From an uncultured Thermoanaerobaculia bacterium (GTDB lineage: Bacteria; Acidobacteriota; Thermoanaerobaculia; Thermoanaerobaculales; Sulfomarinibacteraceae), in NCBI GenBank assembly GCA_964565045.1, contig CAZMED010000002.1, positions 1-57,986 on the forward strand: a stretch of 57,986 nt of DNA, in the 5' to 3' direction. The position numbers and the translations under genes are program-made. Positions 3,852 to 39,216 of this stretch are shown piece by piece; position 1 is the stretch's first letter, and every line of letters starts with the position of its first letter. Under the pieces are notes generated by a model. It was not told the DNA's origin, made no database searches, and saw only the letters and a list, made by a program, of their open reading frames with translations.

Positions 3852-3975
3852 CCCGCAACCGTTGATTCAATGTCCGATAAGATATATTATGTAAACCTGA
3901 ACATCTGAGAACCACACCGATGAGGCCGAAGACTCGTTCAGGACGATCCTGAAGGGCGGCGTTCCCTTCCCCAAC

Positions 3976-4896
3976 TCAGTTCGCGGCGTCGCTGTCTCCG
4001 ATCTCGATGCCGGCCTCGATCTCACGAATCATGGCGCGGAGGGCTTCGATGACCTGCTGCGGCTCGGGCTCGGACTCGGTGCGGAACGCGAGCGACACCG
4101 AGACCGTGCGGTCGGAGCTGCGGAACTGGAAGCGGAACGGCTTGCGGCCCGGCGCCGCGTCGTCGGCCGGTGAGGCTCCGGCCTCGGATTCCTCGAGCTC
4201 GTGCCGTCGGTCGCGCAGCGCGGCGCGATCGAGCCGGAGCTCGATGATCTCACGCACCAGCTGCTCCATCGCCGCTTCGTCGGGTGCACGGGCGATCTCC
4301 AGGAGCACGCTCTTGGCGGTGATGTCGGCATGCCGACACAGATCGCGGATGGACGGCGGGATGCGGAGGGTCTGGAGGCTCTCCGTGACCGTGACCCGCG
4401 AACGCCCGACCGCCTGTGCCACCTGCTCGTGGGTGTAGCGGTACTTGTCGATGAGGGTGCGGTAGCCCTCGCCCTCCTCGAACGCCGTCAGGTCCTTGCG
4501 CTGGAGGTTTTCGATCAGCGCGATCTCGAGCGCCTGCTGGTCGGTGACGCTGAGCTCGATGCACGGAACCTCGGTCAGTCCCACGGCCATGGCGGCATGG
4601 AAGCGGCGTTCACCGGAAACCAGCTCGTAGTTGCCCTCGCCGAGGGGCCGCACGAGCAGCGGCTCGAGAATGCCGTGGGTGTCGATCGACGACTCGAGGT
4701 CGTCGAGGTCGCCGAGGTTCGAGCGCGGCTGGTCCTGGTTGCTGGTAATGGCGGTGATACGGACCATCCGGCCGATGCCCTCGCCCATGCGCTGGGTGAG
4801 CTCGTCGACGAAGTGCCGGTCGTGGCGCATGCGCCGGTGGGACGGCAGGCCGGCCTTGGGCTTAGTCGGACCCGACACGCTGCAGAACCTCCTCAC
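3976..4896 (-). CDS. parB: chromosome partitioning protein ParB/Spo0J
   Basis: ParB box motifs are present (ILEPLLVRP, ELVSGERRFHAA, ALIENLQRKDLTAFEEGEGY), plus an HTH (THEQVAQAVGRSRVTVTESL). The exact start is uncertain: the ORF overlaps the parA stop, and GTG 4878 or ATG 4830 are also possible. Confidence 0.9.
   Translation of the reverse strand: MRRFCSVSGPTKPKAGLPSHRRMRHDRHFVDELTQRMGEGIGRMVRITAITSNQDQPRSNLGDLDDLESSIDTHGILEPLLVRPLGEGNYELVSGERRFHAAMAVGLTEVPCIELSVTDQQALEIALIENLQRKDLTAFEEGEGYRTLIDKYRYTHEQVAQAVGRSRVTVTESLQTLRIPPSIRDLCRHADITAKSVLLEIARAPDEAAMEQLVREIIELRLDRAALRDRRHELEESEAGASPADDAAPGRKPFRFQFRSSDRTVSVSLAFRTESEPEPQQVIEALRAMIREIEAGIEIGDSDAAN
4323..4338. promoter_or_regulatory. 16-bp perfect palindrome TGTCGGCATGCCGACA (copy 2), inside parB
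   Basis: Identical to the 16-mer at 1208-1223. It lies in the C-terminal half of the parB coding sequence, where it encodes ..CRHADI... Confidence 0.35.
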
Positions 4897-5623
4897 AGAG
4901 ACGGTAATACTCGTAGGCGCCGCTCGACGAGGGCGCGTGGCTGAAGATGCTCGCCCGGTGCGCCGGCGACTCCTCGAGCCGCACGGACTTCGTGATCAGG
5001 GTATCGAACACGAGGTCGCCGAAGACCTGGTCGATCTCCTCCTTGACCTGGCGCGCGAGCACGGTGCGACGGTCGAACATCGTGATCAGGACCCCGAGCA
5101 TCCGCAGCTCGGTGTTCGGCCGCGCCTTGATCTTGTCGATGGTCTCGAGCAGGTCGTCGGTGCCCTCGAGCGCGAAGTAGGACGCCTGAATCGGCACCAG
5201 CACATGGCTCGCCGCGACCAACGCGTTGACGGTCAGCAGGCCCAGCGTCGGCGGCGTGTCGATGATGACCGCGTCGAAGTGGCGCTCGAGCCGCTCGATG
5301 GTGTCCTTGAGGCGGTAGGGCGCATCGAGCTCCCCCACCAGGTGGACCTCGAGCTTGGCCATCGCAATGCGCGACGGGGCGATCCACAGATTGGCGTCCG
5401 CCCCTTCGACGATCACCTCGTCGAGTGTCCGCAATCCACGCATGACATCGTACATGTTGCCGTCGAGCGCCTCCAGGTCGATGTTCGACATCGTGGAGTT
5501 GGCCTGAGGGTCGAGATCGATGAGAAGGGTCTGAAGGCCCTTCTGGGCGAGCCCCGCCGCGAGGTTGATGGCGGTGGTGGTCTTGCCGACACCGCCTTTC
5601 TGATTGGTGATGGCGATTCTCAT
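4862..5623 (-). CDS. parA: chromosome partitioning ATPase ParA/Soj
   Basis: Deviant Walker A motif at the N-terminus (MRIAITNQKGGVGKTTTAINLA). Start set at that ATG; the 24 upstream codons were discarded. Confidence 0.9.
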   Translation of the reverse strand: MRIAITNQKGGVGKTTTAINLAAGLAQKGLQTLLIDLDPQANSTMSNIDLEALDGNMYDVMRGLRTLDEVIVEGADANLWIAPSRIAMAKLEVHLVGELDAPYRLKDTIERLERHFDAVIIDTPPTLGLLTVNALVAASHVLVPIQASYFALEGTDDLLETIDKIKARPNTELRMLGVLITMFDRRTVLARQVKEEIDQVFGDLVFDTLITKSVRLEESPAHRASIFSHAPSSSGAYEYYRLCEEVLQRVGSD

Positions 5624-5722
5624 AAAGCTCCGGGACCCGCGGACGACGACGGCGGTGCTGGGGCCACTATAGGGGTGCCGGGTTTCGGGTGTCAACGAAG
5701 GGCCCGCACGCCGCGACCGAGG

Positions 5723-35496: not shown

Positions 35497-36666
35497 CTAC
35501 CGGCCTCCCCCGACCCTCGGCGTCCCGTTCGGGGCCCGCACCGGCCGCCGGCTCGCCGCTCGCGAGGGCGCCACCAGCACCGGCACCTCGACCCGGGGGT
35601 GCTCGCCGTCGTCGGTCGTGACCCGGATCCAACCGCGCACTCCGGCACCCAGACTGTCGCGCTCCAACCCTTCGGCCAACCGCACCCGCAGCATCTGCCG
35701 CGTCCCCTCCGCCTGCGGTATCAGCACCGCCGCGAAGAGCTCCGGGTGGGAGACCTCGACTCCGGCGATCGAGAAGGCGCGCCCGCCGTTGTGGCGGAGA
35801 GTCACGAGCAGGGAGCGGCCGGGATCGTTGGAGGGTGCGGTCGCCCACAGGCGCACCGCGTCGGGATGGGGCTCCAGCATCGGGCGCACCCGAACCGTGT
35901 ACGGAAGCTCGAGCTGCGGCGCATCGGGGTGGTTGGTGGCCACCCGCAGGGTGCCGGAGTACACCCCCGGCGCGGTGACCGGGGCGGCGCTCAGCTCGAG
36001 CCAGACGTCGCCGGGCCGCGCTTCGGGTTCTTTCGAGCCCCTCCGCGCCTGCCCCCACGGAGCGGGATTGTCGGCTGCGGTCTGTTGCGCCGGCTCCCGG
36101 GGCTCTGCACCCGCGGCGCGGGCGCTGACCGTCAGACCCTCCGTGCCGAGCTCCGGCGGGACGACCCGGAGCGCCTGCCCGTCGACCCGGGACAGCAGCA
36201 GGCGCGCGCTGCCGGAGCTGCCCTCGACGAGGGTGATCGCGAGCCGCGGGCCCGGCTTGACCGCGATCGGCATGAAGAGCTCGACGGCGAAACGGAGACG
36301 AATCTCGCGCGCCGCGGCGTCGTCGGTGACGACCCCGATCGACTTCGAGACACGCCCGGTCTGGGTGCTGCGGGTGGCCATCTTTGCGCGGAGCGTGCCC
36401 GACGAACCTGCCGGGATGACCGAGTCGTACTCGGCCACCGCGCAGCCTCAGGAGGGCGCTGCGCGCAGGATCCGCACGGCCCGGTCGGTGTCGTTGACGA
36501 ACACGAAGGTGGCCGTCACCGTCGATCCCGCGACCGCCCTGCCGAGATCGAGATCGGCGTCCTCCACCCGGAAGCCCACAGGCTGCCCGCCCGTCGCCGC
36601 GAAGGCGCTCAGGGCGAGAGACGCCGCCGCGATCGCGAGGCAGAGTCGGCGGCGGTCTTCGTCCAT
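35497..36666 (-). CDS. secreted DUF1573-type protein interrupted by one in-frame TGA (36448-36450): candidate selenoprotein, or a pseudogene
   Basis: Tracked ORFs 36448..36822 and 35497..36438 are in the same frame, separated only by TGA + GGC TGC GCG. The read-through sequence ..VFVNDTDRAVRILRAAPS-[TGA]-GCAVAEYDSVIPAGSSGTLRAKM.. reproduces the DUF1573 ..S-C-G-C-.. core, with TGA at the first Cys. The N-terminus MDEDRRRLCLAIAAASLALSAFA is signal-peptide-like. Confidence 0.5.
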
Positions 36667-36739
36667 CGGGTCCTCCGGGCCGGTCGAGTCTTCGGGGCGC
36701 GCGCAGACCAGCGGCGGCGTCCCCAAGTCTTCGATTGTA

Positions 36740-37498
36740 TCAGCCGGCGACGCGGTGCCCGGACAGGACCCGTCCCCCGGTCGCCACGACCACGCACTCC
36801 ACGGGCACCTGCCGACGGGCACGTCGGGAGGCCTCCTCGGCGAGGGTGACGAGGCCGCGGCAGCACGGGACCTCCATCACCACCACCTGCAACGAGCGGA
36901 TTCCCGCCTCGTCGATCATCGCCACCAGCTTCTCGAGGTACACCTCCTGGCGGCTGTCGAGCTTGGGACAGGCGATCGCCAGGGACCGCCCCGCGAGGAA
37001 GCGCTGGTGGAAGTCCCCCGCCGCGAAGGCGACGCAGTCGGCTGCGAGCAGGACGTCCGCGCCGCGGAAGAACGGCGCGGAGGGGGCCACGAGGTGGAGC
37101 TGCACCGGCCAGTGTCTCAGCTGCGACGGCGATCCCTCCCCGGAAGTCGCGGCGGCGGGCTCGAAGAGCTGCGCGCGCGACCCGGGACAGCCGCCGGGCG
37201 CGGGCTGCGCGACAACGTGCAGAGCCGGCCGGGGCGGCGCCGGATCCGTCGGCTGTCGCTGCGCGAGATGGCGGGCGACGGCCGCCTCGTCGAAGGTCTC
37301 CGCCTCGCGCCGGGTGACCGTGATCGCCCCCTGGGGGCAGTGCCCGAGGCACGCGCCGAGGCCGTCGCAGTAGGAATCGCTGATCAGCCTCGCCTTGCCT
37401 TCGATGATGGCGATCGCCCCCTCGGCGCAGGAGCTCACGCAGTCGCCGCAGCCGTCACACAGCTCGCCGTCGATCTCGACCACGTCGCGGATCGGCAT
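36740..37498 (-). CDS. 4Fe-4S dicluster-domain protein
   Basis: N-terminal CDGCGDCVSSC ... CDGLGACLGHCP, two ferredoxin-type CxxCxxCxxxC(P) motifs. The C-terminal ~170 aa is Cys-containing (CPKL, VPCCRG). Confidence 0.75.
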   Translation of the reverse strand: MPIRDVVEIDGELCDGCGDCVSSCAEGAIAIIEGKARLISDSYCDGLGACLGHCPQGAITVTRREAETFDEAAVARHLAQRQPTDPAPPRPALHVVAQPAPGGCPGSRAQLFEPAAATSGEGSPSQLRHWPVQLHLVAPSAPFFRGADVLLAADCVAFAAGDFHQRFLAGRSLAIACPKLDSRQEVYLEKLVAMIDEAGIRSLQVVVMEVPCCRGLVTLAEEASRRARRQVPVECVVVATGGRVLSGHRVAG

Positions 37499-37501
37499 GG
37501 T

Positions 37502-37861
37502 TCACTCCGCCTGAGCTTCGCGCAGCATGGTCAGCAGCATGCGGCACGGCTCCGGCGCCCGCAGCGCGTGCGGAACCCCCGCCGGCATGCGCACGATCTC
37601 GCCCCCGCCCACCATCACGTCCTTGCCGCCGATGGTCAGCTCGAGCGAACCGTCCAGTACCTGAACCAGGGCGTCGAAGGGCGCCGTGTGCTCGGACAGG
37701 CCCTGGCCGCCGTCGAAGGCGAAGAGCGTGACGCTGCCGCCGCTGCTCTTGGCGAGCACCCGGCTGACGATCGAGCCTTCGGCGACCTCGACCAGCGCCG
37801 CGAGGGCGCTCGCGCGGTCGCCGGGAAGCTGTTCCGCCGATTTCGAACCCGTTGTCTTCAT
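37502..37861 (-). CDS. cupin-domain protein
   Basis: Start at MKTTGSKSAE. A small beta-barrel signature is present (TLFAFDGGQGLSEHTAPFDALVQVLDGS..GEIVRMPAGVPHAL). Confidence 0.7.
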   Translation of the reverse strand: MKTTGSKSAEQLPGDRASALAALVEVAEGSIVSRVLAKSSGGSVTLFAFDGGQGLSEHTAPFDALVQVLDGSLELTIGGKDVMVGGGEIVRMPAGVPHALRAPEPCRMLLTMLREAQAE

Positions 37862-37944
37862 GATGGACCTCCGCTGTCCGTCTCGGATCACCGGACCCAG
37901 TGTGCCCTGCGTGGCGCACCGCGTCCTTGACGCCGGTCAAGTGG

Positions 37945-39216
37945 TCAGGTCGGCCGCGGGTACACGGCCCGGGACGCCATCACGCCGACCCTCGCGCCGG
38001 GCCGCAGCGAGCGCCACTCCTCGGCGACCGCCTCCGGGTCCGGGGCGGGATCGAAGCCGAGCCGGCGCGCGAGGCCCTCCTCGAGGCCGGAGCAGAGACG
38101 GACGCGGAAGCGTTCGGTCTTCTCGACCAGGCGCAGGGTGGTGTGCCCGTACTGGACCCAGCCTTCGGCGAGCCGTCCGAGGATCGCCTCCGGCCGAGGG
38201 TCGTCGAGGAATGGCGCCATCGCCGCCGAGCCCGCTCCGCGGTCGAGGGCGGCGACGTACAGCAGCTCGCCGCCCGGAGCCAGAAAGGAGCACGCGGCGT
38301 CGAGCGCCTTGTGGGCCTGGATCAGCGTGGCATCCGAAGGCCATCCTCCCGCGCTCGCGACCATGAGCTCGAGGGGCTCCCCCACCGCCACCTCGAAGCC
38401 CTCCCGCACCCGCGCGACGGCCGCATCGAAGGCCTGCCGCCACGGGCCGGCGAAAGCTCCGGCGACGCCGCCGTCGCGTCCCGGCACGAGACAGATCGCC
38501 ATAGACGGCGGACGGAGCTCGGCGGCCCCCGCGATCTCCTCCGCCACCGGGTTGCCCTCGAGGCGGCCCGGTCCGCACCCCGGGTGGCGCCGCCGCGAGC
38601 TGCCGCCGGCCGACTCCAGCACCAGGGCGTGGTTGGCCTGAATCTCGGCGTGCCCTGCGACACCGGGGAAGACCATCTTCGGACCGCCGCCGAAACCCGC
38701 GAAGTAGTGGTGGCTCACGGTGCCGACCGTGATCAGCAGGTCGCAGGCGACCGCGCTGCGGTGGAGGCGCAACTTCAGCCCCGGGCGCAGCTCCCCCACC
38801 GCTCGTAGCGAGGCGTCGTCGCGGCTGTCGTGCTCGATGAGCGTCACGCCCTCCGGCAGGGGCCCGACGACCTCGCCGAGGCGCTCCGGTCCGACTCCTG
38901 GATGGGTGCCGCAGGCGACGAGCACGGTGGTTCGCTGCGCCTCGACGCCGCCCTCGCGCAGGCGCGCGATGATCGGCGGCAACACCTGCGGCAGCGCGGC
39001 GCTCCGCGTCGCATCGGGCACCACGATCGTCGCGCTGCCGGATCCGCGAGCGAGCTGTGAGAGCGCCGGTCCGGCGAGCGGTCGATCGACGGCCTCCGTC
39101 ACCAGAGGCGCGGGATTGCCCGCGGCTGGAGGTGCCGAAGGGGTGAGGGGCCGCACCTTCAGACCCCGCAGGTCGACGGCCAGATGGCCGTCCGCGTACG
39201 GGAGTTTGACAATCAC
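37945..39216 (-). CDS. LarA-like (nickel-pincer-dependent lactate racemase family, DUF2088) protein
   Basis: 423 aa. The N-terminal ..IVVPDATRSAALPQVLP..VLVACGTHPG and later HHYFAGFGGGPK motifs are typical of the LarA family. Confidence 0.8.
   Translation of the reverse strand: MIVKLPYADGHLAVDLRGLKVRPLTPSAPPAAGNPAPLVTEAVDRPLAGPALSQLARGSGSATIVVPDATRSAALPQVLPPIIARLREGGVEAQRTTVLVACGTHPGVGPERLGEVVGPLPEGVTLIEHDSRDDASLRAVGELRPGLKLRLHRSAVACDLLITVGTVSHHYFAGFGGGPKMVFPGVAGHAEIQANHALVLESAGGSSRRRHPGCGPGRLEGNPVAEEIAGAAELRPPSMAICLVPGRDGGVAGAFAGPWRQAFDAAVARVREGFEVAVGEPLELMVASAGGWPSDATLIQAHKALDAACSFLAPGGELLYVAALDRGAGSAAMAPFLDDPRPEAILGRLAEGWVQYGHTTLRLVEKTERFRVRLCSGLEEGLARRLGFDPAPDPEAVAEEWRSLRPGARVGVMASRAVYPRPT

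Follow-up and report, generated by a model that had tools for sequence, protein, structure and literature searches.

When a gene is interrupted by a single TGA and carries on in the same frame beyond it, is that TGA a stop, an error or a codon? The question is raised by a gene for a DUF1573 (PF07610) protein on contig CAZMED010000002.1 (assembly GCA_964565045.1) of an uncultured Thermoanaerobaculia bacterium of the Acidobacteriota, which was analysed as one stretch of 57,986 nucleotides, here called the window. On its minus strand, two open reading frames (ORFs; 36448..36822 and 35497..36438) share a common frame and are separated by this one TGA. Comparison with related loci leads us to conclude that the UGA, at codon 73, is very probably decoded as selenocysteine (Sec, U), with its own Sec insertion sequence (SECIS), in a DUF1573/OS_HP2 family member from the Acidobacteriota that has diverged and is mis-annotated in public records. 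Evidence for this comes from the codon that relatives carry at the same position and from a hairpin in the messenger RNA (mRNA) that accompanies the UGA.

The gene and its in-frame TGA

The elements of the proposed gene are the following.
36676..36671, minus strand: Shine-Dalgarno-like GGAGGA, 4 nt (CCCG) before the ATG, putative ribosome-binding element
36666..35497, minus strand: complete candidate selenoprotein gene of 389 codons, U being residue 73
36666..36664, minus strand: start codon ATG
36450..36448, minus strand: in-frame UGA, codon 73, proposed Sec codon, aligned with the first cysteine (Cys) of C-G-C
35499..35497, minus strand: stop codon TAG

Direct reading of the sequence finds only one in-frame TGA in this gene, and a preliminary description made from the letters of the window had placed both the codon and the join between the two ORFs correctly to the base. 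The minus-strand DNA around it reads CGC GCA GCG CCC TCC TGA GGC TGC GCG GTG GCC GAG TAC GAC TCG GTC ATC, so that read-through yields ...RILRAAPS-[TGA]-GCAVAEYDSVIPAGSSGTLRAKM.... As listed, the upstream ORF opens at a far-upstream GTG; counted from the ATG at 36666, the TGA is preceded by 72 codons rather than 124 (MDEDRRRLCLAIAAASLALSAFAATGG...RILRAAPS) and followed by 316 codons up to the TAG. In the databases, the gene is represented by split products (P0001 and P0006), two 'hypothetical proteins' of 72 and 313 amino acids. A genome-wide reassignment of TGA is ruled out, because it serves as an ordinary stop in the window: of 43 crude gene calls, 34 terminate with it. When the window was scanned for TGA-interrupted coding regions, only antisense frames or same-frame adjacent genes came up, and no second selenoprotein candidate. 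Forty of the 43 gene calls lie on the minus strand, and the contig has a GC content of 69.6%, with a value of ~0.9 at third codon positions (GC3).

The TGA falls within a single domain. When the read-through protein was scanned against Pfam with U replaced by C, the PF07610 match ran unbroken across the TGA (52 bits against a gathering threshold of 26.1, E = 7.6e-14, profile positions 3-94 of 98). Full-length Cys-form relatives are common, with 393 database matches of ~340 amino acids, some of them named 'DUF1573 domain-containing protein [Acidobacteria bacterium]'. In a joint alignment with these, the N-terminal fragment of the window protein ends opposite ...VRPT and the C-terminal fragment starts opposite VAE..., leaving open exactly the C-G-C-T columns of the Cys homologs. 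The proposal that the TGA takes the place of the first Cys of the DUF1573 CxC motif therefore agrees with both the profile and the alignment.

How often this exchange occurs was seen by scanning one-genome-per-species contigs and metagenome contigs with the part downstream of the TGA as the query. Among the 126 further loci retrieved, the column holds TGA in 100, TGC in 24 and TGT in two, so that the Cys expected there in homologs is found in 26 of 126. A domain homology search yielded only proteins of 72-76 amino acids ending in ...RAAPS, which are N-terminal fragments of orthologs cut at the TGA; their contigs (L001-L009) have the gene order of the window and a TGA in the matching column. 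All 46 genome loci in the related set carry TGA, and their labels are those of Acidobacteriota metagenome-assembled genomes (MAGs; Candidatus Sulfomarinibacteraceae, Thermoanaerobaculales/-ia and Holophagae), except for the nearest, which is labelled Chondromyces sp. (Myxococcota). In this nearest relative (L010, DATIVB010000056.1, GCA_035466375.1), rpsA is 98% and the DUF1573 protein 83% identical to the window, while the window rpsA is 86-90% identical to that of Sulfomarinibacteraceae MAGs; the label looks like a taxonomic mis-assignment. In a neighbor-joining tree of complete proteins, the Sec forms make up one pure clade (68/68), as do the Cys forms (18/18). The window protein shares 27-82% identity with other Sec forms and 23-27% with Cys forms.

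An exhaustive HMMER search returned 366 representatives at E <= 1e-3, 43 of them at E <= 1e-30, and nearly all of the best matches start at their own residue 1-2. It also returned P0160, a full-length protein of 358 amino acids that is 44% identical to the downstream part of the window protein and contains ...KPSCGCTVADYDRVIPAG.... Its gene, at locus L138 (Ga0373587_0080254, positions 62-1138), has TGT in the column and stands in the order AMMECR1-LarA_N-cupin-Fer4/AF_0155-DUF1573-cmk-rpsA. Because this neighborhood matches that of the window gene, P0160 is its positional ortholog, and we consider it a natural replacement between Sec and Cys, located either within the Sec clade or in a lineage sister to it.

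A lone in-frame stop does resemble a fresh nonsense mutation, and the window is a metagenome-type contig, so one could suppose a pseudogene, or a sequencing or assembly error, in a gene that formerly contained Cys. The 126 related loci come from many samples, and the recurrence of the TGA in 100 of them speaks against this, as do the 71 complete Sec-form loci, in which the frames on both sides of the TGA are uninterrupted and no other disruption occurs. Ratios of non-synonymous to synonymous substitution (dN/dS, Nei-Gojobori method) between the window and L001, L007 and L009 are 0.19-0.31 upstream of the TGA and 0.33-0.70 downstream, which indicates that both flanks, including the part beyond the stop, are under purifying selection. 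Synonymous divergence (dS) between the window and L007 and L009 is ~0.6-1.3, but 0.2-0.4 over the 20 codons that follow the TGA. Furthermore, a hairpin conserved together with the stop would not be expected of a pseudogene. The comparative data refute decay or error as an explanation, and we regard its chance as negligible.

The public annotation implies yet another reading, with two genes: a 72-amino-acid product ending at the UGA and a 313-amino-acid protein starting from a GTG 9 nt downstream. Gene callers give this split in all of the clade's database records that were retrieved, each a pair of 'hypothetical proteins' with N-terminal pieces of 72-76 and C-terminal pieces of ~250-314 amino acids. 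However, the supposed start is a valine codon, four codons after the TGA, and of 88 distinct Sec-form sequences only 29 use GTG for it, the others having GTC (35), GTT (19) or GTA (five); in 30 of the 88, the 14 codons that follow the TGA offer neither ATG nor GTG nor TTG. In addition, one DUF1573 domain spans the junction, so that each half alone would be an incomplete β-sandwich, and both the Cys homologs and P0160 are single polypeptides. With its start codon unconserved, this reading is effectively refuted and, in our judgement, hardly credible.

Two conserved hairpins downstream of the UGA

The RNA elements discussed in this section are listed below.
36439..36415, minus strand: hairpin 1, the candidate SECIS, GGUGGCCGAGU-ACG-ACUCGGUCAUC, 11 bp in the window with a 3-nt loop
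36434..36420, minus strand: invariant core of hairpin 1, CCGAGU-ACG-ACUCGG
36428..36426, minus strand: apical loop ACG of hairpin 1, 20-22 nt after the UGA
36426, minus strand: invariant loop G (G25), 22 nt after the UGA
36415..36398, minus strand: hairpin 2, CCCGGC-AGGUUC-GUCGGG, positions 36-41/48-53, directly 3′ of hairpin 1

The 11-bp hairpin of the preliminary description is present in the window, and orthologs that combine TGA with it were looked for and found: alignment A3 comprises 88 distinct Sec-form sequences, in which positions are counted from the U of the UGA. Across the clade, helix 1 consists of 10 bp (positions 13-22 with 26-35) and is 97% paired. Its core, C17-C18-G19-A20-G21-U22 with A26-C27-U28-C29-G30-G31, does not vary in any of the 88 sequences, closing a loop of the form W-Y-G; the invariant core amounts to 7 bp, and the 17-nt invariant element from G16 to U32 begins 12 nt after the UGA. 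Two of these positions, 18 (third base of an alanine codon, GCC) and 30 (third base of a serine codon, TCG), are fourfold degenerate; their conservation is 100% in Sec forms, whereas Cys forms reach 52% and 84%, respectively. Pair 15-33, which links the third bases of two valine codons, covaries (GC28/CG19/UG10/AU2/UA2/GU1). Over the whole structure, 94.7% of cells are paired; sliding the partners by 1-3 columns lowers this to 26-49%. The observed covariation score was not attained in any of 500 shuffles, and RNAalifold predicts the same helices without a supplied structure.

In relatives with Cys, this structure is lost. The 25 Cys-form sequences are 56.3% paired, which is indistinguishable from shuffles (244/500). 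Of the core pairs, 19-29 is broken in 23 and 20-28 in all 25 of them, since the Asp-Ser (GAC UCG) that every Sec form encodes at this point is Asp-Lys/Arg in Cys forms. The mean minimum free energy (MFE) of the 57 nt after the column codon is -24.8 kcal/mol in Sec forms versus -18.8 in Cys forms. The positional ortholog P0160 follows the same pattern: four sites that are invariant in 88/88 Sec forms are altered in its DNA (GCTGACTACGATCGGG), and hairpin 1 no longer forms. Covariation, conservation throughout the 88 Sec sequences and specificity to TGA forms bear out the earlier suggestion of a SECIS: judged by this alignment, hairpin 1 is an RNA-level constraint that exists only when the codon is TGA, and it behaves as a SECIS.

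Directly adjoining it, helix 2 is paired in 90.9% of cases in the 88 Sec forms versus 46% in Cys forms, and its pair 39-50 (GC70/UA6) has switched from GC to UA in six Sec sequences. The third-codon positions 45, 48 and 51 are conserved at 92/88/99% in Sec forms versus 44/60/52% in Cys forms. Hairpin 2 may belong to the recoding element as an accessory.

Hairpin 1 shows both published features of bacterial SECIS elements, a stem-loop immediately 3′ of the UGA and an apical-loop G that is conserved. In the fdhF gene of Escherichia coli, the minimal upper stem-loop comprises 17 nt and is found ~11 nt after the UGA, and bSECISearch allows 16-37 nt between UGA and loop; the geometry found here (17 nt from G16 to U32 at a distance of 12 nt, loop G at +22) is close to the former and lies within the latter. 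The fdhF loop is larger and has a bulged U, whereas hairpin 1 has a 3-nt loop (W-Y-G) and is joined by a second conserved hairpin. No Rfam family matches at gathering or permissive thresholds, and there is no Rfam model by which membership could be assigned.

Decoding of the UGA and the OS_HP2 family

The preliminary description knew of no Sec-containing DUF1573 protein, and in this it was mistaken. 'Olavius symbiont hypothetical protein 2' (OS_HP2) entered the literature in 2007, when it was reported from the delta1 and delta4 symbionts as a selenoprotein family not known before (PMC1976440), and the GOS study of 2008 lists OS_HP2 with pfam07610, the motif UxC, two selenoproteins and 354 Cys homologs (PMC2398784). 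Reviews from 2022 and 2026 list a 'DUF1573 domain-containing protein, UGC' (PMC9312934, PMC13188914), and NCBIfam holds a model named 'OS_HP2 family (seleno)protein' (NF041425). Acidobacteria, for their part, had already been reported to have a few selenoproteins (PMC1794560). The window protein resembles OS_HP2 in its PF07610 domain, in a Sec at the first Cys of C-x-C (UGC/UxC) that stands as S-U-G-C at the OS_HP2 position of the domain, in its many Cys homologs and in the hairpin after the UGA.

It also differs. OS_HP2 was first reported in delta-proteobacterial symbionts of Olavius, whereas the window gene sits in a deep clade of Acidobacteriota (Thermoanaerobaculia/Holophagae). Going by the family description, for which CAB1076174.1 and MDJ0815992.1 are published examples, the window protein has two additional immunoglobulin (Ig)-like domains and a predicted signal peptide. 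The Acidobacteriota clade is split at the TGA in every public gene call retrieved. Among its relatives, scores against NF041425 range from 63 to 92.5 bits for Sec forms (92.5 for L047), and two Cys forms reach 87.8 and 104.8 (the latter L103). The family thus shades into the NF041425 model, and by motif and profile we place the window protein as a diverged member of the broad OS_HP2 family, outside the curated boundary of NF041425.

Several results weigh against decoding as Sec. Neither the 58-kb window nor the related loci, which total ~710 kb, yielded selA, selB or selD in tblastn searches with the E. coli SelA, SelB and SelD proteins, or a tRNA-Sec with ARAGORN; these searches covered the window, which is one whole contig, and the related loci, not the remaining genome. 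The window protein scores only 60.3 bits against NF041425, below the cutoff of 100. The Sec assignment of OS_HP2 in the literature is itself a computational prediction (PMC1976440), and our literature search found no experimental selenium validation for any member of the DUF1573 family. As for the hairpin, 26 of the 88 sequences lack pairing at 15-33, and in the window sequence alone hairpin 1 is not significant (folding MFE z = -1.34, with 20 of 200 shuffles as good); against a background of 70% GC, a single such hairpin is unremarkable by folding statistics. We rejected those statistics as evidence for the hairpin, and since a single-sequence fold is within chance, its significance rests only on the comparison across relatives. 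Finally, hairpin 1 largely overlaps the conserved peptide VAE[YF]DS[VA]IP, so that part of its conservation could be at the protein level. The invariant fourfold degenerate sites and the decay of the structure in Cys forms argue against this being the whole story.

The absence of the machinery from the DNA searched would also suit a UGA that is recoded, but not as Sec. In this case, a suppressor (a tRNA-Cys of the selC* type or an allo-tRNA) or near-cognate read-through would place Cys, Ser or Trp at residue 73, and there is precedent, as allo-tRNAs occur in Acidobacteria as possible nonsense suppressors and a delta-proteobacterial selC* tRNA-Cys mimics tRNA-Sec (PMC5389517). However, it is specifically Cys with which the column alternates, the mark of a Sec site; the hairpin carries the features published for SECIS elements, and DUF1573/OS_HP2 is already a predicted selenoprotein family. 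It is also hard to explain why a costly UGA and its hairpin would be kept over >70% divergence just for Cys, when TGC is one mutation away, compare P0160. We consider such recoding improbable, and Sec remains the residue that we favor for codon 73.

In a cell that decodes the UGA in this way, translation would start at the ATG at 36666, and upon arrival of the ribosome at the UGA, hairpin 1 of the downstream mRNA would act as a bacterial SECIS. It would recruit SelB-GTP-Sec-tRNA(Sec), resulting in the insertion of Sec instead of termination, after which the remaining 316 codons would be translated up to the TAG. The signal peptide would then take the protein out of the cytoplasm, where the mature form would display U-G-C in a tight turn between two β-strands of its first domain.

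The protein, its neighborhood and its clade

The domains of the read-through protein are arranged as follows.
36666..36598, minus strand: predicted N-terminal signal peptide, MDEDRRRLCLAIAAASLALSAFA, with an A-F-A cleavage motif, judged by eye
36567..36289, minus strand: DUF1573 (PF07610) Ig-like β-sandwich, residues 34-126, holding S-U-G-C, by Pfam match
36288..35542, minus strand: two further Ig-like β-sandwich domains, ~residues 127-375, by alignment A5 and the model of P0036

The window protein is probably exported. Its putative signal peptide, of the Sec-export type (here the export pathway, not the residue), appears by eye to end in ...LALSAFA|ATGG, and a hydrophobic N-terminus is found in all orthologs inspected. 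Besides PF07610, the protein has a weaker Pfam match to HYDIN_VesB_CFA65-like_Ig, its domain 2 carries a low-complexity insertion (AGAEPREPAQQTAADNPAPWGQARRGSKEPEARPG), and the choice-of-anchor D model NF012200 scores 54 bits on domain 3 of a Cys form. Its fold was approached through an AlphaFold model of the Cys-form protein P0036 (60-row alignment), which is ~25% identical to the downstream fragment of the window protein and in which the U position was placed by alignment. The model (predicted local distance difference test, pLDDT, 92.1; predicted TM-score, pTM, 0.73) has an N-terminal helix (residues 4-15, followed by low-confidence residues 16-22), taken to be the signal peptide, and three all-β domains, with C73-G74-C75 in a short turn of domain 1 between strands 64-71 and 75-80. 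Foldseek against the PDB matched this model to tandem HYDIN/ASH-type Ig-like arrays, cadherins and adhesin repeats, without an enzyme fold or a functional lead, which agrees with the HYDIN-type Pfam match and the choice-of-anchor D match; a sequence search of the PDB gave no solved homologous structure.

We know of no activity shown for any DUF1573 protein; a full-text search for the family name returned four papers, among them the two selenoprotein reviews. The U-G-C turn probably acts as a redox site that forms a selenenylsulfide, or as a binding site for soft metals or chalcogens. Among C-x-C redox motifs, C-G-C has served as a mimic of protein disulfide isomerase, and Mia40 has a CPC. Like these, U-G-C would place two chalcogen residues one residue apart in an exposed turn of a (here predicted) exported protein; neither is related to DUF1573 in sequence or fold, the host fold here being an Ig-like/ASH β-sandwich and not thioredoxin-like.

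Upstream of the gene, three neighbors form a block.
36740-37498, minus strand: Fer4/AF_0155, directly upstream of the candidate selenoprotein gene
37502-37891, minus strand: cupin, part of the upstream block
37945-39216, minus strand: LarA_N-like, with a strong match to the Lar_N domain only and a LarA_C match below threshold

Where the flank is long enough, Fer4/AF_0155 directly precedes the gene in 31 of 61 Sec-form loci, and LarA_N is found in 37/56, cupin in 24/56 and cmk, downstream, in 35/54. Roughly half of the Sec-form loci, from Thermoanaerobaculia as well as Holophagae, keep the three-gene block (LarA_N-cupin-Fer4). A flank survey found none of Fer4/AF_0155, LarA_N, cupin and cmk near the distant Cys forms. 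These neighbors had been put forward as support for redox chemistry, a weak argument given that the same genes flank the Cys ortholog P0160 and that the block adjoins the housekeeping pair cmk-rpsA. For the same two reasons, the linkage may be gene order inherited within one class, not functional coupling.

A number of further observations were made on these loci. The upstream neighbor proteins did not look secreted, as far as the N-terminus of Fer4, the only one inspected, can tell. One subclade (L047, L048, L050, L052, L055, L094 and L097) has the motif KPG-U-GC or KPS-U-GC and lacks the LarA/cupin/Fer4 context; its loci carry a tRNA-Ser gene (anticodon UGA) ~1.5-2.2 kb upstream of the TGA, which is an ordinary tRNA and not tRNA-Sec. 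In many Sulfomarinibacteraceae/Holophagae loci (L011, L013-L017, L019, L024 and others), cmk lies ~1.5 kb further downstream than in the window. In L011, the sole one inspected, this extra interval contains an oppositely oriented ORF (3919-5649, minus strand) that has a CxxxCxxC motif (CPEKCRYC) and looks like a radical-SAM protein; it is absent from the window.

With OS_HP2 already known, the new part is modest: a large three-domain Acidobacteriota clade that is split in public gene calls, and a second conserved hairpin. As far as we checked, earlier work describes neither the second hairpin nor a SECIS consensus across the clade nor the Cys positional ortholog. Our search found no literature linking Thermoanaerobaculia with selenocysteine, and the Sulfomarinibacter paper is silent on selenoproteins. 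The finding opens no new category, nor does it by itself reveal the role of the U-G-C site. For annotation, it concerns ~100 TGA-bearing loci and dozens of clusters at 50% identity that are affected by split gene calls. These would be mended by a model made for the clade, or by a lowered NF041425 threshold used together with the invariant CCGAGU-WYG-ACUCGG signature, and the mended annotations would add a marker of the Sec-decoding trait in Thermoanaerobaculia and Holophagae. To the Acidobacteriota, the protein adds a selenoprotein without a thioredoxin fold whose export is predicted. The 88 Sec and 25 Cys forms, together with the one Cys positional ortholog, also constitute a natural experiment, in which the SECIS constrains codon choice and even the choice of amino acid (the fixed Ser codon).

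Taken as a whole, these loci may represent a large, ancient and monophyletic clade of exported three-domain U-G-C selenoproteins in the Acidobacteriota (Thermoanaerobaculia/Holophagae), undescribed at the clade level, with a nearly invariant two-hairpin recoding element and with about half of its loci in the LarA_N-cupin-Fer4/AF_0155 neighborhood. We put this forward tentatively, being almost evenly divided on it and leaning slightly to doubt. If true, it points to a specific selenium-dependent periplasmic role, in redox chemistry or in the handling of metals or chalcogens, in sulfur-cycling sediment bacteria.

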